Source: Podarcis liolepis
Taxonomy: Eukaryota
Direction: 5' to 3' (one strand)
NCBI GenBank assembly: GCA_965112155.1
Contig: OZ218108.1
DNA: 64,000 bases
Under the pieces are notes generated by a model that made no database searches, was not told the origin of the DNA, and saw only the letters and a program-made list of their open reading frames with translations. The position numbers were made by a program, and so were the translations under genes. Numbering within the stretch: the stretch's first letter is position 1; the number at the start of each line of letters is the position of its first letter. Positions 12,141 through 52,976 of this stretch are shown here, one piece after another.

Positions 12141-12943
12141 CCGTATTTTTCGCCCCATAGGACGCACCGGCCCATAGGATGCACCAAGTTTTTTTGGGGG
12201 GAAATAAAGAAAAAAAATTTATTCCCCCCCCCCAGGCGCTTGTGGGGTCGGCAGCGGGGAGAAGCGCTCATCTCCCCGCCACCCGCCTGCAGACCAGGTC
12301 TGGGGACAGTGGGAAGACGCGCTGCGCCTCCCAGCTGTCCCCGGAGCTTGCAGGGCAGGCGGCAGGGAGAAGCGCTCTTCTCCCCGCCGCCCGCCTGCAG
12401 ACCAGGTCCGGGGACAGCGGGAAGACGCGCTGCGCCTCCCAGCTGTCCCCGGAGCTTGCAGGGCTGGCAGCGGGGAGAAGCGCTCTTCTCCCCGCCGCCC
12501 GCCTGCAGACCAGGTCCGGGGACAGCGGGAAGACGCGCTGCGCCTCCCAGCTGTCCCCGGAGCTTGTGGGGCCGGCAGCGGGGAGAAGCGCTCTTCTCCC
12601 CGCCGCCCGCCTGCAGAGCAGGTCTGGGGACAGCGGGAAGACGCTGTCCCCGGAGCTTGTGGGGCTGGCGGCGGGGAGAAGCACGCGTCTCCCCGCTGTC
12701 AGCCTCCAAACCACATCGGGAGACAGTGGGATGGCGGCGTTCCGCCTCCCCGCTGTCCCCCGACCTTGTGGGGCTGGCGCTGCGGCTCTCCTGAAGCCTG
12801 GAGAGCGAGAGGGGTCGGTGCGCACCGAGCTCTCTCGCTTTCCAGGCTTCAGCGAAAGCCTGCATTTGCCCCATAGGACGCACACACATTTCCCCTTCAT
12901 TTTTGGAGGGGGAAAACTGCGTCCTATAGGGCGAAAAATACGG
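12141..12943. mobile_element. Non-autonomous Tc1/mariner (Tigger-like) DNA transposon with GC-rich internal tandem repeat
   Basis: 26-bp TIRs ccgtatttttcgccccataggacgca / tgcgtcctatagggcgaaaaatacgg (1 mismatch); TA on both sides. Confidence 0.9.
12240..12700. repeat. 108-bp GC-rich tandem repeat, about 4 copies, inside the MITE
   Basis: gggagaagcg recurs at 12257, 12365, 12473 and 12581; the ORF track shows a 36-aa period in several frames. Confidence 0.92.
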
Positions 12944-21149: not shown

Positions 21150-21655
21150 AGTTGTAATGTCTGGATCCATCTCTGTCTGGCTTCAGGACAGGTCATAGCT
21201 ACCTCTGTCACCCTGGTTAATTACATTTGTCAGGATAGAGATGGAAGGAGGGCATGTAGCCTTGCTCATTCTGCTTGATATTGCAGAGGCTTTTGATACC
21301 ATTAAATACTATGATATCCTTCTGGAGGGGCTCAACATGAGAACTAGGGGTACTGTACTTAAATTGTTCTACTCCTACCTCCACAGTTATTTCCAGAAAG
21401 TAGGGGGGCACTGTTCAAGGCAATGGCAGTTTTCCTGTGGTCTCCTGCAGGGTTCCATCTTGTTCCCCATGCTATTTAACATCTATACGAAGCCCATGGG
21501 AGCTGTCATTTGACGTGAAGTGTCATCAGTATGTGAAGGACAAGTAACTCTGTTCCATCTGAATCAGGAAAGGCAGCTGAGGTGCTAGGCCGGTGTTTAG
21601 AAGCTGGATGTGAGTCAACAAACCGAAACTCAATCCTGAAAAGATTCAGAAGTGG
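21150..21655 (+). mobile_element. Degraded L2-clade LINE reverse transcriptase fragment
   Basis: LILLDIAEAFDTI and QGSILFPMLFNIY motifs, then a decayed YADD and KLNPEK region; stops and frameshifts. Confidence 0.8.
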
Positions 21656-22639: not shown

Positions 22640-23690
22640 TGCTAATTTAAACCCCCACTTTCTTTCCGTGCCCTCCAACGAAGGGGGCGCCTAGCATGAG
22701 GGACCCCTCCGGGCAGCCACAGAGTCCCCCCATTCCTGCTCTCCCAGCCCTCAGGCACTTTCCCTGCCCAGTCGCCGCCCTCCGCTTGGCGGACGCAGGC
22801 GCGCCTCCCCGCCCGGTGCTGAGGGGGCTTCTTCTCCACCCCAGAGGGCGCGCTTGCCTCGCACAGGACGGCGCGCTGGCCGGGTAAAGAATCCTCTCTT
22901 TCCCTTCAGAAGCGGAGACCGAAGGGAAAGAGGGGGGAAAATCACCGCGCGGCTCCCGCTCAAGGTCACTCCGGGCGGCCCCAACCCAGCGACGTCAACC
23001 CCCGACGCCGAAGGGAGGCGGCCCGGCTGTCGGCCAGCGGCGCAGCGCCTCACTCCGCGCCCCCCAGCGAAGAGAAGGCGGCGCTCCTCGAGCCGCTCTG
23101 CTTGGAGGTATTCGCCGCGCTTCTTGCGCCGCCAGCAACCTCTCTCGGGTCAAGAGGCGGAGGGGGGGAAGAGAGGCGAAGGTGGGGGAGCCTATCATGG
23201 GTGCCGTGGCGGGAATGGCGGCGGGGGCCGAGGTGCAGGAGGCGAAAGAGAGGCTCCCTTTCCCCCAGAGCGACAATGAGAGGCTGGAGCTTTCCCGCCT
23301 CTGGGGAGGAAAACAACAGCCCACCCGCCTTCCTCCGGGTGCATTAGGCGAGGGCCGACGCTTTCCCCATCCTCAGGGTATTGCAGCTTTTCTCTCTCCC
23401 CCCCTCACAGCTTCCTGTCATGCTGCCGCACTCCTCTGGGTGGCGTTTAAGGTGGTGGTGGGAGGGTTGATACGTGCCGACCATCACGGGGGTGGACATG
23501 GCGTGCGTAAAAGCGCCTACTTGTGTCTCGGGCTGGGCGCTTGCCCGCCAGGTGTGTCCTTGGAAAAAGGCCGCGCTTTTGACTCGTTTCATTTCTCAGG
23601 CCGGGGTTGCAGGGTGTCCTCGTTGGGTGCAAGGGGTCGCCGCTCTTCACGCGGAGGAATGGGCGCTCTTGCCCCATGCAGTGTGGCCGC
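22640..23690. promoter_or_regulatory. CpG island, probable TMEM171 promoter and non-coding first exon
   Basis: About 1 kb of CpG-dense, non-repetitive sequence 7 kb upstream of a TMEM171 exon that starts at a splice acceptor and so needs an upstream exon. Assignment to TMEM171 is inference. Confidence 0.65.
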
Positions 23691-25190: not shown

Positions 25191-28081
25191 TCTTTCTCAA
25201 AAGGGTGTTGTGTTTTGGTTTTGGTTTACAAAGGGGCAGCAACCCTAAAGCTTCAGCAAGTTTTAACAAACTAAAAACTCCACTTTATAAACACACACAA
25301 GATTATTATTAGTTATCCAGTTAAAGCTCCTAATTCAATAAAGTTTTGGTTTCCTTAGTTTTCAGGGGGAGTCTGCGGGTGGCAGGTATCTCGTATTCTA
25401 ACCCAGATCCAGCTACACTTGGGTTGCTGTCCTGTACCCAGTTACTTGAGAGTAAGCCCCTTACTTCTGAAATGTATGGGAGCAAAGCTCACTGTTAACT
25501 GATGGTGAAATCCCTTGGAGTTCTGGTCAGTCATTACAGCTGTTGAGTTGGCTTTAAACAGGATTTAATCACTACACATTTTAGCTAATTCTGTGTTAGT
25601 GTCTGTTAAGTGTCAGGAAATTAATTCAGAGAGATTAATTCAGAGGTTTCTATTGAATCCTGTTCATGTTTACGCCAAAGTCTCATGGAGTTACTCTTGA
25701 GTAAATACACATTGGGTTGGAGCCACAGTGTACATCATGGATCTTTTCTACTGTTTTGACTTCATAATTCCCATGGCATATGACCTTAGGTTCACTAATA
25801 CTTCGAATCCTAGTTTCCTCTCTCCTTTGCTGCAGTTCACTATGGGTAAATTTGGGTAGCACATAAATGCCAGATCTTCAAATTGTACAGTTGGCACATT
25901 CTACGTTGAGACAATGTGGGGGTTGTGGGGTTGGCAAGTTTTGATGACTTCATCAAAAACCAAATAAGCACTCTTAATGTGTTATGGTAGAACTTCCTTA
26001 GTTTTACAGATTAAAGTTCATTGAAAATGAAACTATATAAATTTTCTAGCATAGGCACTAGATTTCCCAATGTGAAACCCACAACAGAGAGTTCTTTGTG
26101 TTCATTCTTTTGTGGTATTGAAAGAATTAAAAAAATATGTCCAACTTCCCTTTTATATATATTTGTGTCTGCTAAATTACATTGCTACAAGATTGATGAG
26201 GAAAGGACACTTCCTCTAAAACAGCAATAAAGACGTCCATATTTTGCTTTTATGTAGACTTTATATCATTTCAAATTAATTCCATTTGTCCTGGTCTTAG
26301 GACTTTCTATCATGTTTTAGAAGGGAAGTATGAAGCTTTGTTTATGGAAGGCTTTACTCTGCTTCCAGTTTGATGCTATAAATTTACCAAACATATAAAG
26401 AAATCACTTCTGGAAAAACCTCCATGCACAAGCATCCTATCTGCGAGTGGGGCGCTTTTCGTTGCAGTGTCTTTAGGGACTTAAAGGGCATGCTGCCCTT
26501 TGGCACACCTGAGGATCTGCAATGCCAAACTAAACTGCACAGAATGTGTATGTTGCTTTTCTCTCTCTGCCCACCCCGTTCTGCACACGGATAATCAGAG
26601 AGTTCAGGCACATTCCTGTATCCCATCCTGAGCACAATTATTCCACACGTGTAAAACCTCTGCAAACCGTTTAGAGGTTCTATTTACAATTAAGTGGTAT
26701 ACGAATTCTCTTAAATACATAAAAGCTCATACTCCTGTAAGTGTTCCATTCTTTTCAATATCCCCACAATAGGGACCAGGGATGCTGTTCCCTTGTGATG
26801 GAGTAAAAGAGCTGTCGTTGCGTTATGAAAATCTTACAGAGCCCCTTGCAAGGGGCAAGATGTAAATTCTTCACAGTGTATAGCTTTTAGGTGTTTTATG
26901 CATTATGGGCTTAAAACACAGCTAAGTTGTTCTTTTTCCCATTTGGATCGAAGCTGGTTTGGAGAAAATACACATGATCAAAGCACAGCATTTCCTAAGA
27001 AATTACAGGATACATAGAGGAAAGATGTGAGTTAACATTGGGTGTACACTGCTTCCAGTGGGGATGCATTGGATACAGAGTAAACAGGAATGTGTACACA
27101 GCATTAATTACCTTACCCTACAGCAATGTTCATTGCCTAATTTATCACTTCAAGAAGCTTATATTAGCCTACAAGGGGCTTATCGGACAGTTTCTCATAT
27201 GAACACTGGACAGATCCAGATCTGTTGAGCTGTAGCAAAGGCTTCATACACACCATACATGTAAAAAGCATTAGTTCCCGCAGGGAATCCTGGGAACTGT
27301 AGGTTACCCCTTACAGAGCTACTATTCCCAAAAATCCTTAAACAAAGCACCATGTGACTTCTTAAGCTCCGCCCCCTGTGTTGGTGTTCCTGGAAGGAAT
27401 CTTTTACTTGTATCCACACAGGGACTGGGATATTTTGGCTAGTCTGTGCTGTTCCCCAATATGTCTCTGATAGGTGGAACCATTTGGTTTATAATTTTAA
27501 CATGTCTTGCATGATGCCAGAGTGTTGTCATTTTTCTCCTTTATTGAGGGCAGGTGCCTAGAGGTAAGAGCAGGGTTGAAGTTGTTGCCTTATGAGCTGA
27601 AGCTGATCACATGGAATAAACCCTCTTATGCAATCCAGCTAGGATAAAGTGCTGGGGAAGATGGGGACCTGCTATTTCATCCCCTCTGGATCATGTATAT
27701 CACATTGAGGAGTAAAATCCTGGCCTGTTTTGTGCTCGTGGGTTTGGGGCTAGGAAGCAAACTGCATTTTTCTTCATGGTCTCTCTGCAGTCCTTTATTT
27801 CCTTACAAGGAATCCTTGCAATCATAATTACATTTTTACAGGTGTGAAGGTTTGCAATTTAACTCGTGTTGTGACCAGCCACACAAATGAGTGATTGCTT
27901 TCTGTTTTAATAGTTGCAAATGGACTTTGGACTTCTAAGTGCATGCAAATCCTTTCCTCTTCCTGACTGCCTGCCATGGTCTTTATTTGTCTGTCACATT
28001 TATATCCCAAGATGCTCAATGCATCTTACATGGAGTTGGCCCATTTTACCCCCCACAGCACCCCTGTGAGGTACACTAGTC

Positions 28082-29501
28082 CAGTGTTTCCCAACCACTG
28101 TTCCGCGGCACACTAGTGTGCCGCGAGATGTTGCCTGGTGTGCCGCGGGAAAAATTAAAAAATTCAAAAGATTTTTTTTTTAAAGTCAAATTTTCGATTG
28201 GGGCGCCGTCACTAGATGACCCCTGGGGTTCCCTCCCTCCCTCCCACTCTGCGCCTCCCTCCTCCTCCTCTTCCTCCGGGGAGGCCCTTCCTGGCTCTCG
28301 GCCAAGGCTTGGCGGCTGCCACTCACTCACTCGCTCGCCCACCCGTCCCTCCATCCCTGCACCCGGCCTCTCCCCCTCCGGCCCCGGCGCGGAGGCTGCC
28401 GGGATCCGTAGTCCCCTCGCCCTTGGGCTCCGCGTCCGCACGGGGTGCGCAAACTACGTTTCCCAGCGTGGCCTGACGGGCTGGGCGTTTTGTTTGAAGC
28501 GCTCTTCTCCCGGCCATGGAATGAGCGCAGCGGCGGCGGCCGGGCGGGCAGGGGCTCTTCCACGCAGACCCCGCGCAGCCTGCCTGCGGCCCCACGGAGA
28601 TCGGGCGGCAGGATGGAGCCCGGGGATCCCCGCGGAGGCGGAGCGGCGGAGGCAGGTAGGGCTGCGTCGGGGGGGTGGTGGTTTATTTTTGCAATGCTGC
28701 ATCCGCGCCGGAGGGGATGCATCGGACCGCGGGGAGACCCCTTGGCGTGCGTGCAAGGCAATGCCTGCGTGCAGGCGTTGCATGGAGTGCAGTGCAATGC
28801 AATGGCAACGTGGCGCCCTGCATGCATGCATGCAACTTCCACCGGCGCTCCGGACTTGGCAAGTGAGGGGGGTCCCCAGTGGGCGGCAGAGAGAGCCGGG
28901 AGGGCGAAGGGGAGCCGGGGGGGAGCAGCGCTGCTCCCCGAGCCGAGCCTGGGGGGAAACTTCGGCGTCGTTGCGCCGGGTGTTGGAAGCGGAGGCTGGC
29001 GGGGGCCCCTCACCTGCAAAACCTGGTCGCCTCTCATATATTTCGTGCATTGCATTCATCGCCCGCTTTCTCCTCCAAGGAGCTCCCGGGGGCGCACGTG
29101 GTTCTCCCCGTGTTATCCTCGCAACAACAGCCCTGCGAGGTGGGTCAGGCGAGTGGCCCAAGGGAGCACCCAGGGATTGTCCTGGCCAGGTGGGGTGATT
29201 TGAACCCTGCTCTCTGCCCGGTCTTCGTCCTCATTTAGCCCCCACATGTGCATGACTGTGCATGACTGAGGTTTTCCCCCGTCTTGGCTATGGTGTGAGT
29301 CTGTGCTGTTAATTAATGGGGTTCTGCCTTCGGAGAAGATGAGCCAGCCCTCAAGGAGGTGATTATGTAATTTGCTAGCAATTCATGTCCCTCCCGGCAT
29401 GACGCTGCGCGCTGACGTCACGGGGCTGTAATGGTGGTGTGCCTCGAGATTTTTTTCATGAAACAAGTGTGCCTTTGCCCAAAAAAGGTTGGGAAACACT
29501 G
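28082..29501 (+). mobile_element. Non-autonomous hAT (Charlie/Buster-type) element with captured CpG-rich cargo, copy 1
   Basis: 15-bp TIRs cagtgtttcccaacc / ggttgggaaacactg; perfect 8-bp TSD cactagtc (28074-28081, 29502-29509) with central TA; subterminal gtgccgcg repeats; inserted into an old SINE. Confidence 0.96.
28393..28473. promoter_or_regulatory. Two divergent ACTAC-nnn-TCCC (ZNF143/THAP11-type) motifs within hAT cargo
   Basis: Minus: GGACTACggaTCCCGGCAGCCT (28393-28414). Plus: ACTACgttTCCCAGCGTGGCC (28453-28473). Both are present in copy 2. Confidence 0.55.
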
Positions 29502-30985
29502 CACTAGTCTAAGAAGGATTGCATAAAGGCCCCCAGAGCTTGTTAGCTATTGATATCTGAACTCAGGTTTCCCTCAGTCAGAGCTCAGCACTCTAGCCCA
29601 ACCTTCCCCTAAGCTGCTGCCTTCCAGATGTTTAGGACTCCAGCTCCAGCATGGCCAATGATCAGTTGATGGGAGTTGTAGTCTAAAACATCTGGAGGGC
29701 ACCAGATTTGAGGTAGGCTGCTGCTCTAGCCATGCACCACAGCATGTCGATCTCTCTACATTTCTGCTACCCTGAGAGTTTATTCAATTCTACTGAATTA
29801 AGTTTACAACATTTACTAGCTTCATTAAAACAAACCTCAAGTCCCTGATGTAGCAAGAGAGAGCCATGTGGATATCTGAGCAGGGGTACTTGCAAAAGTG
29901 AGCAGCCCTACCTCAGTACTAGCGATAAACACTGATACATGTCCACCATTGCTTGCAGCCAACACTTTTTCCCAATCTGATCCCCTGAGAACCTACCTTT
30001 GGGGCTGGGAAAGGTTGTGAAGGCATGGTAGGAGCTTACTTGTACTATTGTAAACAACAGAGAGCCCTTCACTGCAAATTGCATACTGATCCAGGGACCT
30101 CCAAGTGAGAGATGCTGAGGAAGGACACCTAGAGGGTTGAGAGACCCTGGGTTGCTCAAGACACACACATTATTTTTTTACTTCCTTCGGGGCCTTAGAA
30201 ATAGACGAGGTTCAAACTCTGGACATGAGCTCTCTTTCTCTAGTGAGTCACTGCCCCCTTGCTTATCTGTGTGAGGTGCCTTGTCTTTGCAGCCTATGCT
30301 TGAGGTTCCTGGTAGTTATTTGCATCTGTAAAAGATCTGAAAAGACTAGCCTTATTCATCATTTGTCGTTTGTGCAAAGTGTGCTCCTTCACCACAGTTC
30401 CTAATAGGGAACAATCCCCACTTGTTGTGTTCCAAACTCTCCAGCCATGGAGGCAGAAGGCTATGGCCCTATGCCACAAATGCTGATGTATGTGAACTAT
30501 ATTCTAGTTTATGTACTCCTGGGGTTAATGCCACAACTGGTTGCAGAGTTGGTCAGACTCTCCTGCCATCCGTTGTATGTGGTGGGAAGGTGGTAACAGA
30601 GAGGGGAAAGGTGGGGCTCACATCTTGAGCTTTACTCTGACTTCAGTGAAAGTATTTTCAAATTGAGCTGCCTCTTATTCTGATGTAACATGGCATTCTC
30701 ATAGGCAAGACCACCCCTTGAGCAAGCAGAGGATTCAGCTAACTTCCTCTTCTCCCATGTCATATCCCCAACTCTGCCCGGGAGCAATCCTTTTCCCACC
30801 CAGCAGGTGTAAATAAGGGACAGACTCAATATGTGAATTATCTGTTGTTGCCCTTGGCTTAATAATCATAGTCCTCTTTTCGTTTTCGTTCTCAGGCCTA
30901 CTGAAGTGGTAATGTCATTCTGATCTCCATAGAAGAAAACTTGTTATTCCTTGGTTTGAAGAGGGATTTAAAAAAAATAATAATA

Positions 30986-31610
30986 ATGTATCCAGTTCCT
31001 GGTTCCATGCATGAAGGAGATAATGGACATCCTAGGAAACTTATCTCTTTCCTTTTCGTTTTTGGCATTACGTTGTTATGTGCTGGATTTCTGCTTTCGA
31101 TGTTTGTGTTGCAGACGTGCCCAAGTGGTGCCTTTGGTGACTGTAAAGGAGCCCTCAAAATCATTGGGCCTCTGCTTGCTGTTACTGGACTAGTTTGTAT
31201 AATTCTGGCGCAATCGAGAGCTAAAGGCTACCTCAGAGAGGTGCAATTGCAAGATGACCAGGTGTACGGGTTTGTTTTTTGTCGAGGAAACTGCCAGTTT
31301 GCTCAGTTCCTTGTCTTTGGTTTTTTATTTTTAACTAGTGGGATGCTAATCAGCGTCCTTGGCATTTGGATTCCGGGATGTAGCCCAGGTTGGCGCTACC
31401 AGCAGTTTAACCATAGCAATACTTCTAATGTTGAACTCCAGGATTGTGGATTTCATTCTGTTCAGACCATGGGACCTTTGATTGTGCTCATTGGATTGTG
31501 TTTCTTTGTGATAGCTCACATTAAAAAGAAACAAAACATAAATTTCGTCCAGGAGTCTTCTGTCAATGAAGAAGAGCAGCTGGATCCTGAATCATTTCAA
31601 GTTACAGTGG
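30986..31610 (+). CDS. TMEM171: TMEM171 first coding exon (acceptor at 30896, ATG at 30986), four TM helices
   Basis: MYPVPG...KLISFLFVFGITLLCAGFLLS...QFAQFLVFGFLFLTSGMLISVLGIWIPGC...MGPLIVLIGLCFFVIAHIKKK...FQVTV; ttctcag acceptor and GTGG|gtaagt donor; syntenic with FCHO2. Confidence 0.93.
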
Positions 31611-31930
31611 GTAAGTGAATGACACAGCCAAGAAGTCTTCCAAGTGGGCAGTCCCTAGATGCCAGCAACAGGAGACACTTGCAAGGACACCCCATTCCTC
31701 CCCAGCACTTGAGGGGTGGATTAGGAGGGGAGGGAAGAATTTTGGAATCGGAATGTGGGAATGGTGGAAGAAGAAGTCAGGGTGGGTAAGAAGATAAACT
31801 CCAGAAGCTGGCACTGAAAGTATAGTTGCAAGGACTGCTTTTGAAGTACAGTACACTCCTCAGAACAGTGGTGAAATTAATGAGAGAAATGGATTCTATT
31901 TTACAAAGTATAATAGCAATACTACTTCAC

Positions 31931-32279: not shown

Positions 32280-32694
32280 TACTTCACATTGTGTTGAGAG
32301 CACTTGTCTCAGTAGCCCCTACAACAGCATTTTAGACCTTCCAGTTTATGGTGTTACACCATTTGTGTGTCTAGACGAATGCAGATCTTAAAGCTTTAAT
32401 CTCCAAGCATTTTCAAAATATTTTAAAGTTGCCCTGTGATCCTTTGATGAAGGGCAGTGTGGAAATTTAATAAATAATAACAATATTCTGCATGCTAATA
32501 AAAGTGCAAGTGTTTTCCAACAAAAGCAGGGAAAGACTGATAAGAGTTTAATCAAATGATTTGAAGATGCCCTAATGCCTGGGAGTGATGATTCTTAATG
32601 AAATGCACATCACAAGTAGGGCTATCTTGCATGTTGCTCCAAAGAGAACTGCAGATAAATTCGACCTTAAAAGTTTTGGATTTTTCTTTTGTAG

Positions 32695-32836
32695 GTGATA
32701 CTGTAATGGTATTCCCACCACCGCCACCGCCTTATTTCGCTGACTGTCCACTGCAAACAATAACTCCTAGTGTGGTAACAAGTGATTTGCCTTTAAGTGA
32801 AAATCCTCCACCGTACCACAGCACTTTTATTAATTG
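32695..32836 (+). CDS. TMEM171: TMEM171 second coding exon (GDTVMVFPPPPPPYF...SENPPPYHSTFIN)
   Basis: ttgtag|GTGATA...TAATTG|gtaaga; 142 bp; phase 1-2; two PPxY motifs. Confidence 0.92.
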
Positions 32837-33602
32837 GTAAGATCATTTGTACTTTTAAATTTTTTGAGCATTTTGCACATGGGCTAATGCAGAGTTTGCT
32901 GTATACCACCTGATATTTTATATGAGGGGGTGGCCTATAAATATTTTAATTAATAAATAAGCAGATTCTTGGTTTTCTCAGCACCTGGGTGCCAGACCCT
33001 AGTGCTATGCTGCTGTGAGCTCCCTGGAAGAATATAAATGTTATTAACAAGTTAAACAAGTCACAGGCATTCCATCTGAATGTACACTTCACATTACATC
33101 ATTTCCATCATTATATTTCAGAGCCTTTGCCCTATCTTTTCTGAATCAACTAGATATTAATTCAAGAAGCCTTTGCATCCCTTTGCATGATTGGATGCCT
33201 CTTCTTACTTGACAAATAAGATCTTTCACAGGTGCTGCTGTTGTGTACTGATTTGCATGCACCATGGCATGGGAAGGGTGTACCTATGTCCTTTTTCATT
33301 GTAGTATAACACTGCATGATTGGCTTCCTGTCAGAAGTTCGCACTTCTATATTGTCCATGGGCGATGATATATATGAAGCAATTCGCCATGTGCAAAGTA
33401 CTCTTTGGCCTCTACCAGTTAGAATTAAACTGGCTGTATCCATACCAGATGTAATTTTACCACTTTGGTGAATAGAACATTATCATCATTGCTTTTAGGC
33501 ACCTTGGGTACTATATGTAGAAAGGCGGGGTATAAATCGAAATAGCAAATATAGAGAGATTAAACATGCCAACATGTGTACCCTTTCGTTATTTCTTTGC
33601 AG

Positions 33603-33823
33603 AGCAGAGAATGCTGATGCGTCAAACCTGGTCGCTTGAAGAGAGAATGAGCTACTGTATACAATGTCAGGATGTGATTCACCTTCTGAGAACTTAATCC
33701 ACACTCTCTCATCCCTCTGAGCCATCTCAAAATTATAAGGGCAAACGAGCAGCTGTAAATAATGAATGTGTCTTTTCTTCCTCTCCTTACATCACCCAGA
33801 TGATCCATTGGCATCCGCTTTGA
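33603..33823 (+). pseudogene. TMEM171: Decayed last coding exon of TMEM171 (now effectively 3' UTR)
   Basis: Strong acceptor atttctttgcag; the junction makes TG|A; second TGA at 33637-33639; residual homology RENELLYTMSG and, after a frameshift, PSEPSQNYKGK..VNNE, aligning to recalled IYTISG and SELPPRYEEK. End approximate. Confidence 0.75.
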
Positions 33824-37900: not shown

Positions 37901-38124
37901 TGCTGAGTTATACAAGGGTAGCTGAAGAGAAGGGGGAAGCTAATAGGCAGGACCATCTCCTAGACTGATTGTAAGTATAAAGGCAGGCAGGTGCAGGCTG
38001 ACTCAGGGTAGACTGCGGTTGGTGGGGCAGTGCCTCTTTTTCCCCAATGGAAACGTCAGCTGGTGCAGAATGTGGTAACCGGATTGCTGATAGGGGGACA
38101 TCAGGCTGACAATATGTGAAACCA

Positions 38125-38420
38125 TCTCCACCGGCTGCCCATCTACTGCCCAGCCAGGTTCAGGGTCCTTGTCGTTATTTACAAAGCCCTGAACAACTTA
38201 AGGCTCAGGATACTCCAGGGACTGCCTGAACCCTTATATCCCAGCTTGATCACTGAGATCATCTGCAGGAACATCGTTGTTCATTCCCCAAATTGGCAAT
38301 GCTCCTTTGACAAGAAACAGCCTTTAGTGTCATTGGCCCAGTATTGTGGAGTACTCTCCCAACACAGATTCAGCATGTGCTGTCTGTTTCGGAAAACCTT
38401 TCAACTCAGGCTTATGCAGG
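38125..38420 (+). mobile_element. Old L2-clade LINE 3' fragment
   Basis: LHRLPI...RFRVLVVIYKALNN parallels LHWLPVRFRAQFKVLVLTFKALN at ~41900. Confidence 0.65.
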
Positions 38421-38544
38421 GCAAATAAGAGCACATCTTTCCACAAGAGCTAGCGGTTTCTGATTTTCACTTTTTAAATGTGTTTTTTTGTTGTAAGGTT
38501 TTGTTGTGCAATTGTGAACTGCTCTGCTATAATTTATAAATGCA

Positions 38545-38885
38545 GTCTAAACCAGAGCCTAGGGCTTGCAGATCGGAAGGTCGGCGGTTTGAATCCCCGC
38601 GACGGGGTGAGCTCCCGTTGCTCAGTCCCTGCTCCTGCGCACCTAGCAGTTCGAAAGCACGTCATAGTGCAAGTAGATAAATAGGTACCACTCCAGCGGG
38701 AAGGTAAACGGCGTTTCCGTGCGCTGCTCTGGTTTGCCAGAAGCGGCTTAATCACGCTGGACACATGACCTGGAAGCTGTCTGTGGACAAACACCGGCTC
38801 CCTCAGCCAGTAAAGCGAGATGAGCTCTGCAACCCCAGAGTCATCCGTGACTGGACTTACATGGTCAGGGGTACCTTTACCTTTT
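38545..38885 (+). mobile_element. Sauria SINE, slightly 5'-truncated, about 200 bp upstream of the TMEM174 start
   Basis: High similarity to 728-1077 from gtctaaacc to the (accttt) tail. Confidence 0.9.
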
Positions 38886-39084
38886 TATGTATGTATACAT
38901 ATATTTATAAATAAGTAAACAGCTTCCATTACTATTCCCCATGAGATGATTAAGTCCAGAGTCTAATGTTACCCAACTGCGCTATTGTGAACAGAGTTCT
39001 TGTATAACTAGTGCAAACTTGGTCCATCCTACCAAGGACACCCTCCTTCCTAGGCATTCCAGGACAGGTTTGCACAGTAACGGA

Positions 39085-39693
39085 ATGGAGCGCTGTTAAA
39101 GATGCCTTCCCCTGCGTGTTTTCCTCCACTCCTTGTTAGCCGAGCAGTTCTGAACTCATGGTGTCTGATGACCACAAAGCTGGTGCCACACTACTTTTAT
39201 CTGGTGCGTTCTTGGGGCTAGTAGGAATTATATTCACCATGATGGGATGTGCAAAATATGAAAGGGTCATTCGCTTCGAATGGACTCAGTTGCTCGGGCC
39301 TATTGTGCTTTCAGTAGACGTGACTTTTTTGCTGATTGCTGTGTGCATGTTTAAAATGATTGCTTGCAAATCATGCAGCCCAAATGAAGGAACAGCATCT
39401 GACACAGGCCAGACTCCTATTGGACAATCTGTTGTTTTCACTAGGATTAGCCAGGCTATAAACTTCCACGGTGCTACAGTGGTGCAGTACATCCCTCCTT
39501 ATTCAGCCCAGGAAGGTGTTGGCATGAATTTTCATCAAGTATTGAGTCATCCTGGAATTCCTCCATTCTCCAGGCCATTAATTCCCGCTTTGAGCCCTCC
39601 TTGTTACTATAATGTCAACCCCCTGGATAACTCTGCTTTTTCTGCAGATGAAAATTACTCTGCTTATCTTCCTGCAGACACCAGAATTGGAAG
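39085..39693 (+). pseudogene. TMEM174: TMEM174 exon 1, disrupted at the 5' end; residual ORF from ATG 39158
   Basis: VSDDHKAGATLLLSG..LGLVGIIFT..FEWTQLLGP..FHGATVVQYIPP identifies TMEM174. ATG 39085 reads MERC*; the homologous frame VFSSTPC*PSSSELMVSD has TAG at 39137; donor GGAAG|gtaagt. Confidence 0.8.
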
Positions 39694-40408
39694 GTAAGTT
39701 ACTATGTGTAGTACACTGCATTTCAATTGCAAGATCTTTTACATGCACTGGTTAGTGGCGTTAATGAAGCATTGGCGTAGTCTTTGCTCAGACAGAATTT
39801 CAATTACTGACTTGAAATAAGAGCATTGCCCGAAGCAGCAGCCATAACTGGTTCACAGATATTGCCGTTCCAATTAATTAATGATGCGGCATTCATGGAG
39901 CATTTTAATCTTCTATGTGTTGTTTAAAAAAAAAATGTATCTGTTACCTCCGACACAGAATTATTTTAATTTTGTCAAAGTAGCATTAGGAGTGGATTAA
40001 TAGAGATAGATCTCCAGATTTCTACCCCAGAATCTATTTTTCATGCCAGAAACCTGTAATAGTATGGGGAAAAGGTGTTTTTGAGCATATTCAGAATCTG
40101 CTTTCCTCAACACTAAGCAAGCATATCCCCTCCCCTTCCTATGGTCTTGAAAATTAGTTTAGAAGAGCAGATCTGCATTACATGCCCTTATAAGCTCCAC
40201 AGCTGTTCTCACACTGGGACTTTAGCTGTCCCCCAAGAATGCATTGGTTTTTTTGTGACTATCATTCTCTGTAGAGGCAGGCTGTGCAACCTGCATTAAA
40301 GGGGGGTGGAGTTTGGGTTTAAAAATACAACAACCTGCTTTTGTTAGGCACCTGAATTTTTGCTTTTCAGTTTATAAAATTCTTCCTATCCCTTCATCAC
40401 ATTTCCAG

Positions 40409-40512
40409 ATCAGCTGACACTCTCCAAGAACCTGGAGAGATGCTGAATGAAGATATTAACAGTGACGTCTCACCTCCCACCATATGAGAAACTATTTCCA
40501 CAGTGGTTATAA
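40409..40512 (+). pseudogene. TMEM174: TMEM174 exon 2 with +1 frameshift in the terminal PPPY motif
   Basis: ttccag|ATCAGC; reads SADTLQEPGEMLNEDINSDVSPPTI* (TGA 40485-40487). Removing one C at 40476-40478 restores SPPPYEKLFPQWL* (TAA 40510-40512). Confidence 0.8.
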
Positions 40513-41487: not shown

Positions 41488-42275
41488 TGATTGAGGTTGA
41501 ATCCTGACAAGACAGAAGTACTGTTTTTGGGGGACAGGGGGTGGGCGGGTGTGGGGGATTCCCTGGTCCTGAAGGCGGTAGCTGTGCCCCTGAAGGACCA
41601 GGTGCGCAGCCTGGGAGTCATTTTGGACTCACAGCTGTCCATGGAGGCACAGGTTAATTCTGTGTCCAGGGCAGCTGTCTACCAGCTCCACCTGGTACGC
41701 AGGCTAAGACCCTACCTGCCCGCAGACTGTCTCACCAGAGTGGTGCATGCTCTAGTTATCTCCCGCTTGGACTACTGCAACGCGCTCTACGTGGGGCTAC
41801 CTTTGAAGGTGACCCGGAAACTGCAATTAATCCAGAATGCAGCAGCTAGACTGGTGACTGGGAGTGGCCGCCGGGACCACATGACACCGGTTCTGAAAGA
41901 TCTGCATTGGCTCCCAGTACGTTTCCGAGCACAATTCAAAGTGTTGGTGCTGACCTTTAAAGCCCTAAACAGCCTCGGTCCTGTAGACCTGAAGGAGCGT
42001 CTCCACCCCCATCGTTCTGCCCGGACACTGAAATCCAGCGCCGAGGGCCTTCTGGCGGTTCCCTCATTGCGAGAAGTAAGGTTACAGGGAACCAGGCAGA
42101 GGGCCTTCTCGGTAGTGGCGCCTGCCCTGTGGAACGCCCTCCCAGCAGATGTCAAAGCAATAAACAACTATTTTACTTTTAAAAGACAACTGAAGGCAGC
42201 CCTCTTTAGGGAAGTTTTTAATGTCTGATGCTGTACTGTTTTTAATATTCAGTTGGAAGCCGCCCAGAGTGGCTG
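41488..42275 (+). mobile_element. Young 5'-truncated L2-clade LINE with an open ORF2 C-terminal region (41491-42228)
   Basis: 245 open codons with LNPDKTEVL, LGVILDSQL, SRLDYCNALY, QNAAARLV, LHWLPV and AFSVVAPALWNALP, all L2 ORF2 motifs. Confidence 0.92.
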
Positions 42276-44513: not shown

Positions 44514-46984
44514 CTATGGAGGAACTGTGAGGTGGAGCCTCTCTTGCTGCCTCCTCACACCAATTTTGCCACAGCTCCTTAAGGACAAAATAAACCCACA
44601 GCCTCCCATTGCCACCAGAGGGTTTTTTTTGTCCTAATGACTTTTGTTTCCATTTTCCCTGAAGCATGGTGTACAATTGACTCAATCAAATTTACTTTTA
44701 GTCAAATTAAAAAATAAAAACAGCTTGGTATTATTTTTAACAGTAGTTTCCCATGTTTGCAAGGAAACACACTGGAGTCCGATTAGGGAAATCCCCTCTC
44801 CAGGGGCTTCTGTATTCAGTGGTATTTCAAGCTCATGCTATATTCTCAACAATTGCTGCCACTCAGAATTTTTCTGGGCAGAGCATATAAAGAATAGTCA
44901 AAGACACTCTTTGCAAAGCAGCCTCATGAAAACACACATGATTCCTGGCAGTCCTTAAAATAGTTAATTTCATCTTCCTCTACTTTAAGCCCAATAATCT
45001 GCAAACTGCGACTGATGCATTAGAGATTTACAGCTACCATAATTTATGTCATAGTAGATCACAAATCCTTTTTTTCCTTTTCTCCTTCCCTCCCCCTGGC
45101 CCCCGCTCATCGCGTTCCATCCTTTTAAACAATATTTGGCAAGAGCCCACTGCTATGGAAACTGGACTGTTTTACATTAGTCAGTAGTACATTTAATCAT
45201 TCCTCCGAAATGATTTACTATGGATTACAAATTCTTATATGGCATTTTAAGTTAATGATTAGACAAGTAATAGATCATCAGCATGATTGGTCACATATGG
45301 GTTGTACTTGTGTAGCGGGGAGATTACAACACAACTTTTTTGGTTCTGCAGAATTTTGCTGTTTGTAGTCATGCTGGATCAACAGAATGAGAAACACAGC
45401 CCTCCCCCTGTTCCCACCACCCATTTCTGTGCAGGAACTGTTTCTCCAGTGAAGGATTCCCCAAAAGGTGTAATGCACATGTGAATACTTCAGACACATA
45501 GGGACCCTGGAGTAGGAGAATTCAGAGGGTAGCTGTGATTCTTCTAGATTAAATTATCCTTTGGATCCCTTCCAACTCTACTGCTCCATTATTCTATTGC
45601 TCCATTATATGCAAGGTGTGTACAGTTCTCCACCAGGAAGCACCACCTCAGCTTCTATAACTTTTGTAACTTTAAATAAAGATCTATGAAATCATGCCAG
45701 TGCAAACATTACCCCAGTACAGACAGCACAGATACTTGCACAGCTGCATTTGTGTGAACAGAAGCAAACTGCATTAAATCAGAGGTGGGGAACTTCTCAT
45801 TCCCCCACCCACCACTGGACAACTTTGACAGTTGTGAGGAACCACTCAACTGTCAATCACCTGACATCATAATGACATCAAGTGATTGACACCTGCCCAA
45901 GTCCAAAGGAGATAGCTGTAACAGTGTATGTGTTCAAAGCAGAAAGGAAACTGTAATGCACCGCCTTACAATACTAATGAAAATTGTTTTATCATAACTG
46001 CTTTGTGATATACATTTATAATAAAACACCTGTGATAGGTTGATATGCATGGACAGAGTTGTCTCTAGTGTGCAGAGCAAAGTCCATGTCAGACATTTCC
46101 TCTTTTTTTCCGGCTCTTCCTTCTCCATCCTTTTAAAGGCATGTGCAGCACAATCATACAAACATGTTTACTCAGAAATAAGCCCCACTAAATTCAATGG
46201 GACTTATTTCCAAGTAAGTACTATGCAAAGGACTGTGACCTTAGGAAACAAGCCAGAGAACCTATCTTTGCTGTGGATGACATTAAGGTTTCATATTCCT
46301 ATCTGCTGTGTAATTTCATCTCAGCTTTTAGTCTTCCAAAAGACCACATCCTGGGCCAAACAACTCCTTTCTCCTAACTGCATCCTAAACTGTACCAACA
46401 AGGGAATCGGTTTTGCATTAACGATCACGGTATTAAAGACCGTGTTTGCAAAAGAGATCATGGGCATGTCATCCTTTGGGAAACAATCACTTTCCTTGTA
46501 CTTTGTTCTCCATCTCCAGCATGTTTTAAAAGAAAGGCATTGATTTACGTAGCTGTTATGGAACAACAATCAGCCGTGAGCAAACCCACAGCCACCACCT
46601 TCAGTCTGGAGAGATCTTATGTCCAGCTCCTTACATATCACCTCTATTAAATTATCCACGGACAAATGCAATTTGCGGATGGAATGCTCTGGTAAACACA
46701 TTTAGATTATCCTATTTGCCGGGCCGTAATAATATAGGATGGGGGGGGGGCTGTGATACTGTGCATGTATTAATCTGGGTCCCAGCTGCCTTCATCTGTC
46801 TCCCCACCCCCGGATGTGGCTTCTCTAATGAAGCTCGCATGCCATTGTATACATTACAGCTCCAGAGTGTAATTTTAGTCAGTTGTTTTGATGAATTTCA
46901 CGGTCCCCATCTGATCTGCATTTGTCTACACGGAAATCGTAGCCCTGGATTAATTTTGGTCGAAAAGCTCTTTCTAGTCGATCT

Positions 46985-47610
46985 TCTCAGCCGCGAGGAT
47001 GGGCGGCCGCCGGAGGAAAAGGGGCAGCTTTTCGCACGGACCTCCCCGCCTCGCCCTGTCCCCGCGGGATCAAGGATGAGGAGCAGGCAGGGCTCCCGCC
47101 TCCCTCCCGAGGCCGGCCGGACACGTCCCTCCCCCCCTCTCCCAGTAAGGTCCTCCCTCGCGTCCGCAAGCCCTTCCCCGCTTGCGTGCCTCCGGCTGCT
47201 CGCTTTCCCACGGGCTGCCCCTGATCCTGGCGTCAGAGGCCGCCGCGCTGATGGGAGCTGACGCGTCCCCTTTGCGCGCGCGCGCGCGCTCACGCATCTT
47301 GGCAGCGGCTGGCTGGAGCGCGCTGCTGGGTGGGAGTGGGGCTGGAGGAGAAGGGCCTGGTCCCCCTCCTTGGCCTGGGCGGCGAGGTATCCCCCACGGC
47401 CCCACCTGGCTTGGCTTGCAGACGTCCGGCCTAGGGTGGAAAGAAGGGCGAGGCCTTTGCGGGCTGGAGTCGCCCGCCTTCCCGTCTCCGCTTCGCCCCC
47501 AAGGTCGTTTCTTGGGCCCAGGGCGCCGCCCTCGCCACCTGCTGCAGCTCGCCTTCGTGGCCGCTGTGCAAAAGCCGCCTAGAGTGGACGAGAGAGGCGG
47601 CCCTTGGGGG
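46985..47610. promoter_or_regulatory. Orphan CpG island containing a (GC)8 tract at 47274-47289
   Basis: CpG-dense, non-repetitive, no TIR or TSD seen; not attributable to FCHO2, TMEM171 or TMEM174. Confidence 0.7.
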
Positions 47611-47736
47611 TATTATTATTATTATTACTATTACTATTATTAACTTGCCCTAAGGTCACAGGGAGGGATACAACAATTAAAACACAATCAGAAAAAGAAG
47701 GTGGGTGATGCACAACTCGAGTGTCAACAGCCCCGA

Positions 47737-49572: not shown

Positions 49573-51258
49573 TACTCCCAATGGCTTAATGTGGATATTA
49601 ACCAGCATTCAGGACCAAGATGGTACCCTGAGGAATTCCCCAGCCTTTTCTGTGCTGCCCCCCAGGTTGTGGCATGCCTTCCCCTGCATCATACCCACTA
49701 TTGAACTCAATGGGTTTATGACTATATGCGATTTTGGGCTTTAGGCACCATCCCCACAATGTAACCCCATGTAAGTTGCAGGCTTAACTGTACATCTTTT
49801 TTATGTTAGTCGTTTAATTGTACTTTTGTACGTGTGCCATAAAGACTACTGTCAACAGCTTTGAGATTTCCGGATAGTAAGTGATCTATAAATGGAAATA
49901 ATAAAATCAATTGGCAAAAACTCCACACAAGAAATGGGCAAAATCCTAGCACTCTTCTTTTTAAAAACTAAATAGTTCCCCCCCGTGTGTCCTGCCGAGC
50001 CATCAGGGGGTGGGCTTGCCTCAGTGAAATGGCTGCTTTTACAAAACAAAGCTTCCTTCTGGGTGGCTGGGAATGTCCGGGGCAGGATGCTGTTGGGTGG
50101 GGCGGTGTGTGTGGGAGGGTGAGACCCTCCTTCAGTATCAAGCCTGAAGAGGGCGGGCCCTGTTGCTGCCTGGCTACCTCCCTTGTTTCTCTCCTCCTCC
50201 TAATGTCTGAAGACGTCTCACTTCATCTGTCACCCATTCTGTTCGCCTGCCCAGCTGTCAAAACAGGGGGTGTCTCTTTCATTCCAGCTCACAAAGTCCC
50301 AAAGGGGAAAGGGACTTTAATGCCTGTGTTTGGACACAAGCAATTATCCCTAATTATTGTTTTTCTTTTGAGCTTGCCCGTCCTGCTGGAGAGCCAGCAG
50401 ATGAACATGCCCTAATCCTCCCCAGTCGGTTGATCTCAGTGGGTTTTGCAGGACAAGTCGGCCGGAGGGCGGGGGGAGCAGGGGACTTGGGGGCTTTCAT
50501 CTCAATGTGAGTTTAGGGCTGATTCAAACGCTTTGCGATGGGGGAATTAACCTCAGAGCCAGGACTTTCAATGGCCTCTGATAAGAGATTATATGGGTTG
50601 ATGGCAAACCTTTCTTGGCAAAATGTTTTCAAAGGCCTCAGAGCTGTTAAATCAAAGCGCTATTGAATTGGGGCAGGTCCCTTTGCTCTGACCTTCTCTT
50701 TTTCTCTAGTTCAGTGGTGGGTATAATTACTGGTGGGGTGGCAGAGAGGCAGCTCCTCCTTCACAACCCCTTTCCGTTCCCAGATACCATCCCTACTTAG
50801 TGCTATGAACAAACTTGGGAAATAATAGCCAGAAATGGCAATGCCCATTGTGTCAATCAAACATGTACTTGCATCTACAAGCAAGCCTTAAAACCAGCTT
50901 GGTGTCCTCATGACACCATCCATCGTCAGCCTTCCATCTTCTTATTTAATATCCTTATTTGTACGCTGAAATGTTAAAAAGTGGGGCAAGGTAATTTTGT
51001 CTCTGTCAGTATCTTGCTGTTTCAGAAAAGGTTGCATACTATATATACAAAGATTTGTACATAGATTCACATTTGAACATTTAGGACGCACTTGTACTGG
51101 TTGGCATATAAGAAGATAGGAACTTGCCTTAGTTCAGTATTACCTATGCTGATTGGCAACAAATCTTCAGGCCTCACCTGCAATAAACATAGCATCATCC
51201 CACTTTAAACAGGCATGGTTTCTCCTAAAGAATCCTAGGAACTTAAGGAAGCTTAAAG

Positions 51259-52696
51259 CAGTGTTTCCCAACCTTTTTTGGGCAAAGGCACACTTGTTTC
51301 ATGAAAAAAATCTCGAGGCACACCACCATTACAGCCCCGTGACGTCAGCGCGCAGCGTCACGCCGGGAGGGACATGAATTGCTAGCAAATTACATAATCA
51401 CCTCCTTGAGGGCTGGCTCATCTTCTCCGAAGGCAGAACCCCATTAATTAACAGCACAGATTCACACCATAGCCAAGACGAGGGGGGAAAACCTCAGTCA
51501 TGCACAGTCATGCACATGTGGGGGCTAAATGAGGACGAAGACCGGGCAGAGAGCAGGGTTCAAATCACCCCACCTGGCCAGGACAATCCCTGGGTGCTCC
51601 CTTGGGCCACTCGCCTGACCCACCTCGCAGGGCTGTTGTTGCGAGGATAACACGGGGAGAACCACACGCACCCCCGGGAGCTCCTTGGAGGAGAAAGCGG
51701 GCGATGAATGCAATGCACGAAATATATGAGAGGCGACCAGGTTTTGCAGGTGAGGGGCCCCCGCCAGCCTCCGCTTCCAACACCCGGCGCAACGACGCCG
51801 AAGTTTCCCCCCGGGCTCGGCTCGGGGAGCAGCGCTGCTCCCCCCCGGCTCCCCTTCGCCCTCCCGGCTCTCTCTGCCGCCCACTGGGGACCCCCCTCAC
51901 CTGCCAAGTCCGGAGCGCCGGTGGAAGTTGCATGCATGCATGCAGGGCGCCACGTTGCCATTGCATTGCACTGCACTCCATGCAACGCCTGCACGCATGC
52001 ATTGCCTTGCACGCCCGCCAAGGGGTCTCCCCGCGGTCCGATGCGTCCCCTCCGGCGCGGATGCAGCATTGCAAAAATAAAAAACCCCCGACGCAGCCCT
52101 ACCTGGGGGGCAGCCTCCGCCTCCGCCGCTCCGCCTCCGCGGGGATCCCCGGGCTCCATCCTGCCGCCCGATCTCTGCGGGGGCGCAGGCAGGCTGCGCG
52201 GGGTCTGCGCGGAAGAGCCCCTGCCCGCCCGGCCGCCGCCGCTGCGCTCATTCCATGGCCGGGAGAAGAGCGCTTCAAACAAAACGCCCGGCCCGCCAGG
52301 CCACACTGGGAAACGTAGTTCGCGCACCCCGCGCGGGCACGGAGCCCAAGGGCGAGGGGACTACGGATCCCGGCAGCCCCCATGCCGGGGACGGAGGGGG
52401 AGAGGCCGGGTGCAGGGATGGAGGGACAGGTGGGCGAGCGAGTGAGTGAGTGGCAGCCGCCAAGCCTTGGCCGAGAGCCAGGAAGGGCCTCCCCGGAGGA
52501 GGAGGAGGAGGAGGGAGGCGCAGAGCGGGAGGGAGGGAGGGAACCCCAGGGGTCATCTAGTGACAGCGCCCCAATCGAAAATTTGACTTTTTTTAAAAAA
52601 AAAAAATCTTTCGAATTTTTTAATTTTTCCCGCGGCACACCAGGCAACATCTCGCGGCACACTAGTGTGCCGCGGAACAGTGGTTGGGAAACACTG
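51259..52696 (-). mobile_element. Non-autonomous hAT element with captured CpG-rich cargo, copy 2 (inverted relative to copy 1)
   Basis: Reverse complement of 28082-29501 with few differences; same TIRs; perfect 8-bp TSD gcttaaag (51251-51258, 52697-52704). Confidence 0.96.
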
Positions 52697-52976
52697 GCTT
52701 AAAGTGAGCAGATCCTTATTCCCCACAAGGAGCTACAATTCCCACAGTGGTTTAACTGTCAATTCTTAGAGAGGCAGGCTTTGAGCTGTGAGATTCAGAA
52801 TATTGACTGTGTGATCTCTCTTCTGTTGACTAGGAATGATTTTCTCAACCAAAGGCTTCATACTGCCTGCATTTATAGAAAGCCCATGCTTAACAATCCC
52901 TCTTGAGTCATTCTTCGGCCTTTCTTCCTCTCTGCTGACTTCAATAAAGGAGATATCATTCATTAATTCGTTTAAA

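Follow-up and report, generated by a model that had tools for sequence, protein, structure and literature searches.

The TMEM171–TMEM174 locus and its surroundings

The window, i.e. the whole 64-kb stretch of DNA that was analysed, carries TMEM171 and, downstream on the same strand, TMEM174. The open reading frame at 39158–39694 is identified as TMEM174 by a Pfam search (PF15029, 235 bits against a curated cut-off of 27, E = 1e-69), and alignment of homologous proteins resolves the gene into two exons with intact splice sites. The open exon-1 frame (39158–39693, plus strand) runs from a methionine common to Rhineura floridana, encodes two predicted hydrophobic helices, keeps one internal PPxY motif (PPCY at 147) and contains an in-frame deletion of three residues. 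It is followed by an intron at the homologous position (39694–40408, plus strand), with a donor that matches the consensus at 9/9 sites and a CAG acceptor with an 81% pyrimidine tract, and by the exon-2 coding part (40409–40487, plus strand). The spliced product comprises 204 amino acids and ends in SPPTI*, with 201 codons still open; the frame that the initial annotation described is indeed open, but its 179 codons correspond to the unspliced read into the donor. A low-confidence model of the protein (mean pLDDT 47.7, pTM 0.19) predicts helices at residues 5–32 and 42–71.

TMEM171 (PF15471; coding exons 30986–31612 and 32691–32840, plus strand) is intact and provided both a synteny marker and a rate control. 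It is ∼94–95.7% identical to TMEM171 of Hemicordylus and 93% to that of Pogona, and a lineage-wide rate acceleration is rejected, as none is seen in this gene. Its second coding exon reads on to a stop at the donor, giving a form of roughly 258 amino acids that resembles the Pogona, Tiliqua, Naja and Salvator records, and the distal exon seen in Paroedura is present at 33586–33802 with stops and a frame change. In several other species, too, TMEM171 and TMEM174 records sit on contigs of equal size (e.g. Apaloderma, 24,541 bp, and Python, 271,243 bp). As the intron is kept, the parental synteny with TMEM171 is retained and a second TMEM174 copy was not found within the 64-kb window, the locus is the orthologue, and a retrocopy or processed pseudogene is rejected.

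In a free tree of 20 sequences, the window TMEM174 is sister to that of Rhineura floridana (P0002; UFboot 100; branches 0.195 and 0.089), with which it has 14 derived residues in common. This placement makes the source a lacertibaenian squamate, and the SINE type would suggest a lacertid. Rhineura is also the nearest named relative by identity (77%), with no named protein above this value among 17 hits or among the 120 matches listed of 261. The absence of a closer named protein would fit TMEM174 going unannotated in this clade, and the database may hold no lacertid proteomes. A search of 50% representatives gave 65 matches, among which the record P0009 alone is close, the next stretch being 70% identical over 40 residues. 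Characterized TMEM174 has the same family assignment, two-exon structure, TMEM171 linkage, putative two-helix hairpin and conserved block after TM2 as the window gene, in which residues 1–28 and the terminal motif of 10 residues are missing. The accessible text of three reports describes TMEM174 as a proximal-tubule negative regulator of NPT2A/SLC34A1 (PMC9012787, PMC13465602, PMC13252570), two of them with phosphate retention, vascular calcification and early death in knock-out mice (PMC13252570, PMC13465602); that of PMC13320880 does not mention the gene.

A Pfam scan of 25 other long open reading frames in the window revealed no further gene, the matches being one RT fragment and one spurious repeat match. 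LINE-like fragments lie at 21199–21510, 38120–38425 and 41491–42225, with a Pfam RT match in the first only, and the one AATAAA to be seen in the 2.6 kb around exon 2 (42159) falls inside the third. At 12230–12778 there is a GC-rich array of tandem copies that repeat about every 108 bp and are 84–88% identical, and CpG-island-like segments at 22700–23400 and 46900–47650 have observed/expected values of 0.78 and 0.84, the open reading frames overlapping both showing no Pfam match. A GC-rich 1.42-kb element, presumably a young non-autonomous DNA transposon of the hAT-like class, is present in two inverted copies (28081–29502, plus strand, and 51258–52697, minus strand) that are 96% identical and have terminal inverted repeats and separate 8-bp target duplications; the copies flank TMEM171 and TMEM174 and could mediate an inversion. 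The SINE-type repeat at 38545–38885 (plus strand), which we take to be a ‘Sauria SINE’, does end 200 bp upstream of the start region as the initial annotation had it, but is an old, common and uninformative bystander, 81–86% identical to four other copies in the window. With five copies in 64 kb, diverged by 14–19%, a causal role for the SINE is unsupported.

Start codons and the 5′ leader of TMEM174

The ancestral start region (39074–39094, plus strand) is damaged and may be read in three registers, in every one of which the ancestral start is unusable and a usable in-frame ATG is absent. In register 1, the ATG at 39085 is Met1 and is followed by an 11-nt loss, such that one event is needed; in register 2, 39081–39089 encodes what is R3-N4-G5 in the N-terminus of squamates, while TAA at 39078–39080 marks the destruction of Met1/Glu2 and 1 nt is lost; in register 3, ACG at 39080 is a mutated Met1 that is in frame. 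The registers were scored by pair-HMM, with residues 1–7 of the Sceloporus protein for comparison. At assumed divergences of 0.08, 0.15 and 0.22, the posterior is 0.76, 0.23 and 0.07 for register 1 and about 0.17, 0.63 and 0.79 for register 2, whereas register 3 stays at 0.04–0.09 across this range. The higher divergences are plausible because the N-terminal segment differs between the window and Rhineura at 7/21 residues. Register 2 would also account for the Rhineura record being partial: it is flagged as 5′-partial, begins at residue 3 and is without an N-terminal Met. The ATG at 39085, previously put forward as the ancestral-looking start, does read as MERC*, but represents the ancestral start in one register out of three.

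Two upstream open reading frames precede the remaining frame. The first, MERC* (39085–39099, plus strand), has four codons and a strong context (g at −3, g at +4), and its stop lies 2 nt before the ATG at 39102 and 58 nt before the ATG at 39158. The second (39102–39221, plus strand) has 39 codons, is out of frame and overlaps the main start at 39158, the context of which is weaker than that of the ATG at 39085. Re-initiation with such spacing of upstream reading frames would favour skipping of the second ATG (39102) and use of the third (39158). The overlap had been recognized in the initial annotation, which took 39158 for the only usable ATG; no in-frame ATG lies upstream of it, so that the N-terminus with Met1 found in intact TMEM174 is missing, but further in-frame ATGs exist at 39239 and 39242, with 39158 alone keeping TM1 whole. 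Stops before the exon junction could also trigger nonsense-mediated decay of the TMEM174 mRNA.

The TAG in the homologous frame is confirmed at 39137–39139 (plus strand; about codon 22 of 243), at a codon that is Gln in most squamates. It lies upstream of Met 39158, hence now in the 5′ leader, and would be without effect once the start is gone. The methionine at codon 29 (39158) is common to the window and Rhineura only, the latter being the one sequence among 28 homologues to carry it; Rhineura TMEM174, unlike that of the window, has a constrained core, no in-frame stop and an intact tail. In opossum kidney cells, human TMEM174 with an N-terminal deletion still binds and down-regulates NPT2A, as given in the accessible text of a preprint (PMC13252570). 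Since the methionine is shared with Rhineura and an N-terminal deletion works, the best reading of the broken start and the TAG is that a leader already bypassed has decayed, rather than that the gene took two knock-outs, although both could still lower TMEM174 output. The proposal of three independent disabling lesions is for this reason not borne out: neither independence nor a disabling effect is supported for the two 5′ lesions, both of which are bypassed by Met 39158.

The C-terminal tail, the core and a close relative

In exon 2, the extra C of the initial annotation holds up as a +1 frame change in a short C-rich run of three bases (40476–40478, plus strand; about codon 233 of 243), which turns SPPPYEKLF into SPPTI* and leaves the stranded tail PPYEKLFPQWL* (40477–40512, plus strand) in the next frame. 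This tail is undecayed, with PPYEKLF 7/7 identical to Rhineura and the stop at the same distance. The frameshift takes away the terminal PPxY-E-x-hydrophobic motif of intact TMEM174. The pattern [PL]PxY[ED]x[ILVM] is found in the last 32 residues of 89/99 named homologues, from sharks to mammals, in a count confined to named records, with 22 unnamed ones and the 141 unlisted of 261 matches outside it. Of the ten misses, four are turtles and two are short isoforms; the others are a hypothetical protein of a salamander, a gecko (an extended model in which the motif is internal) and two birds (a substitution in the motif). In all, 81 of the 89 tail-bearing homologues have two or three PPxY motifs. 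Splicing does not rescue the tail with the native donor, as 0/52 acceptors restore the motif; among all 22 × 52 GT-AG pairs, 11 restore it, with weak donors (2–6/9) and acceptors of 31–38% pyrimidine.

We take the terminal motif to resemble a WW-domain (NEDD4-family) ligand, PPxY, together with a YxxPhi endocytosis signal, and TMEM174 presumably recalls the PY-motif NEDD4-family adaptors of the NDFIP, PMEPA1 or Commissureless type. Like these adaptors, TMEM174 is a small membrane protein with a disordered tail that bears one to three PPxY motifs and promotes the removal of a membrane client, the likeness being one of resemblance only; no relevant literature on TMEM174 with NEDD4 or WW-domain binding was found, as judged by title. 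In human TMEM174, removal of the last 43 amino acids lowers FRET with NPT2A according to the accessible text of the preprint (PMC13252570), which deals with a 43-residue and not a 10-residue loss and is ambiguous in wording as to which of these residues matter. In its discussion, the proximal C-terminus is favoured for docking, the tail is termed extracellular and the partners that link the tail to endocytosis are stated to be unidentified (PMC13252570), whereas the accessible text of PMC3820833 places both ends of TMEM174 inside.

Altered or missing tails are also seen elsewhere. All four turtle TMEM174 records (P0011, P0014, P0204 and P0239) are without the exon-2 tail, three ending in apparent intron read-through and one being flagged as low quality, and the Gly>Arg that the window shows at position 96 is also found in Terrapene and Chelonoidis; parallel erosion of turtle TMEM174 is possible. 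Tail motifs are altered in P0016, P0223 and P0224, which are a penguin (low quality, with Arg in TM2), an ibis and a booby (both partial, with the N-terminus missing).

Within the core, the radical changes at conserved sites that had been noted earlier stand in two of three cases. Trp is replaced by Cys at the end of TM1 (39248–39250, plus strand; W in 97/99 named homologues), and Gly by Asp in the middle of TM2 (39317–39319, plus strand), a site with 93 G, 2 R, 1 S and 3 unmatched of 99, and with Asp in 0/96 of the named homologues matched there. The Asp shifts the best-scoring TM2 segment, and the TM2 score (0.63) is matched by that of the intact Salvator protein (0.58). The window protein thus combines an Asp in TM2 with a Cys for a near-invariant Trp, and the functional data come from mouse, opossum cells and human constructs. 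The third change, YIPPPY to YIPPY, is rejected as a lesion because the same one-residue gap is common to 18/18 other squamate rows.

Rates were taken from the branch lengths of each column class, with the squamate topology fixed, and conserved columns were defined from 10 non-squamates only. The window branch has a length of 0.173 for the 96 conserved columns and of 0.180 for the 104 variable ones, a ratio of 0.96 (95% bootstrap 0.46–2.31) versus 0.37 (0.28–0.46) in the rest of the tree, and in 98.8% of 500 resamples the window ratio is the higher of the two; eight other squamate branches have ratios of 0.50–0.65, inside the window interval with its lower bound of 0.46. The Rhineura branch measures 0.058 at conserved and 0.110 at variable columns. 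At the most conserved sites, 8/12 changes in the window are radical (BLOSUM62), whereas the 14 named squamates compared have 23/81 (P = 0.018, Fisher test); under neutrality a share of 0.50 is expected. Judged from these alignments, the branch ratio and the radical share would fit neutral evolution of the remaining frame. Changed conserved columns number 15/91 in the window, 6 in Rhineura, 16 in Sceloporus, 20 in Python and 21 in Anolis, relative-rate tests against Rhineura give P < 0.05 in only 3/18 comparisons, and the probability of 201 open codons under full neutrality is 0.6–21% over six parameter sets. Among the 120 TMEM174 matches listed of 261, the one snake with a name is Python; other snakes may sit in the remaining 141 or may have lost the gene.

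The three lesions lie at about 2%, 9% and 96% of the CDS, i.e. in its first or last 10%, where conserved genes often carry lesions according to the accessible text of 10.1101/2022.09.08.507143. When the TOGA rule is applied by hand, these lesions leave TMEM174 ‘intact’, and only the break in P0009, at 78%, has the position of a unitary-pseudogene lesion. The locus is otherwise like the TOGA-type unitary pseudogenes described in the same text (10.1101/2022.09.08.507143) in being orthologous, in its frameshift and stop lesions and in its probably relaxed constraint.

P0009, an assembled record 97% identical to the window TMEM174, carries the same derived residues after TM2 and the same three-residue deletion; the core erosion is therefore not an assembly artefact. 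It has a frame change of its own at 39626–39632 (plus strand; 78% of the CDS), a site that is intact in the window. This break would support decay, coming from a single record that spans none of the three lesions of the window. P0009 starts at a TTG (window 39329) inside TM2 though the window has upstream in-frame ATGs, which may hide an upstream break or reflect a contig edge or the choice of the gene caller. Of the four substitutions visible between the two sequences, one changes an amino acid, two are silent at third positions and one lies in the intron. This silent excess, a post hoc count of four events, has P = 0.02 under neutrality, or 0.04–0.05 when the junction residue is counted, and would be weak evidence that constraint acted recently. 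The pooled divergence amounts to about 1.3%, and the conserved-column excess needs about 4–8% nucleotide change, so that the erosion is several times older than the split from P0009.

Probable erosion of TMEM174 and alternative readings

Taken together, we consider it reasonably probable that TMEM174 eroded long ago, in two steps, until a null or weak allele was left, and that it is not a young pseudogene. We infer the order of events, the translation and the loss of function as follows. In a first and probably harmless step, an ancestor common with Rhineura would have gained the Met at codon 29, after which the first 28 codons would have decayed into 5′ leader, with the broken start and the TAG as by-products. 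In a second step, constraint on the core would have lapsed on the window's own branch, radical changes would have built up in and after the membrane hairpin, and the +1 base would have taken away the terminal PPxY-E-x-hydrophobic motif. The mRNA, if transcribed, would be spliced normally, and a 204-residue product may be made in low yield by leaky scanning or re-initiation past the two upstream open reading frames; as this product has Asp in TM2 and is deprived of the tail signal, it would be unable to bring about the internalization of NPT2A in response to hormone. As to the end state, a null pseudogene is a fair way short of an even chance and an expressed hypomorph is somewhat less probable again. 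Loss or strong weakening of the gene, which the initial annotation had also concluded, is thus likeliest, but for other reasons: not by three independent knock-outs, and not recently. The altered renal phosphate regulation that the initial annotation drew from it would be conjecture, SLC34A1 and SLC34A3 both lying outside the window.

The strongest alternative, which we hold to be unlikely, is a functional gene trimmed at both ends, in which a 204-residue product is made and kept by selection and TMEM174 is simply fast-evolving in episquamates. Such a product would use the membrane-proximal region and the remaining internal PPxY, and the PPCY is kept; the placing of docking in the proximal C-terminus in the discussion of PMC13252570, in its accessible text, would suit this. 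The confinement of the lesions to the termini, the 201 open codons, the intact splice sites and the silent excess against P0009 are also as this reading would have them, turtles are without the tail too, and the neighbouring TMEM171 is highly conserved despite a degenerate distal exon. However, conserved and variable columns evolve equally on the window branch and the radical share fits neutrality, the TM2 Asp is seen in 0/96 named homologues matched at the site, P0009 has its own frameshift and two upstream open reading frames precede the start.

It is improbable that the extra base in exon 2 is an assembly error or a private allele, in which case the gene would be N-terminally shortened and divergent with its tail present. 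The base does lie in a C-rich run, the tail is 7/7 identical to Rhineura with its stop in place and exon 2 is known from this one sequence; but the run is only three bases long, about 258 codons of the nearby TMEM171 have no frame break, and P0009 independently confirms the core erosion and has a break of its own. More improbable still is a young unitary pseudogene with three independent lesions on an otherwise normal gene, for although all three lesions exist, the splice sites and tail are undecayed and at low divergence the register with one 11-nt loss comes out best (0.76), Rhineura echoes both Met 39158 and the loss of the N-terminal start, the TAG would do nothing in the absence of that start, and the 0.17 substitutions per conserved site far exceed the 1.3% separation from P0009 and are shared with it. 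The description as ‘young’ is at odds with these same core changes, which are common to P0009 and represent several times that divergence.

Gene erosion confined to one lineage is common as a class, and the loss of TMEM174 in this lineage is probable, not proven. Within the open-access literature, with subscription papers and supplementary gene-loss tables lying outside the search, no report of TMEM174 gene loss and nothing on SLC34A1 in squamates was found, and by title nothing relevant on TMEM174 in lizards or as a pseudogene, on TMEM174 in lacertid gene loss or on lizard renal phosphate. The locus carries a warning both ways, as terminal lesions overstate loss and a rule limited to the CDS's central 80% may miss it. 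A wider reading, in which a whole lizard clade lost TMEM174 after an older shift of the start that amphisbaenians have as well, with parallel loss of or damage to the tail in turtles and some seabirds, is speculative and rather doubtful. If true, nature would have knocked out, in these lineages, a gene without which mice develop hyperphosphataemia and vascular calcification and live only briefly, and the terminal PPxY, as the part hit repeatedly, would be singled out as the link to the endocytic machinery. A vertebrate lineage without TMEM174 would show that animals of a different physiology can do without this brake on NPT2A, or that they have lost NPT2A as well.
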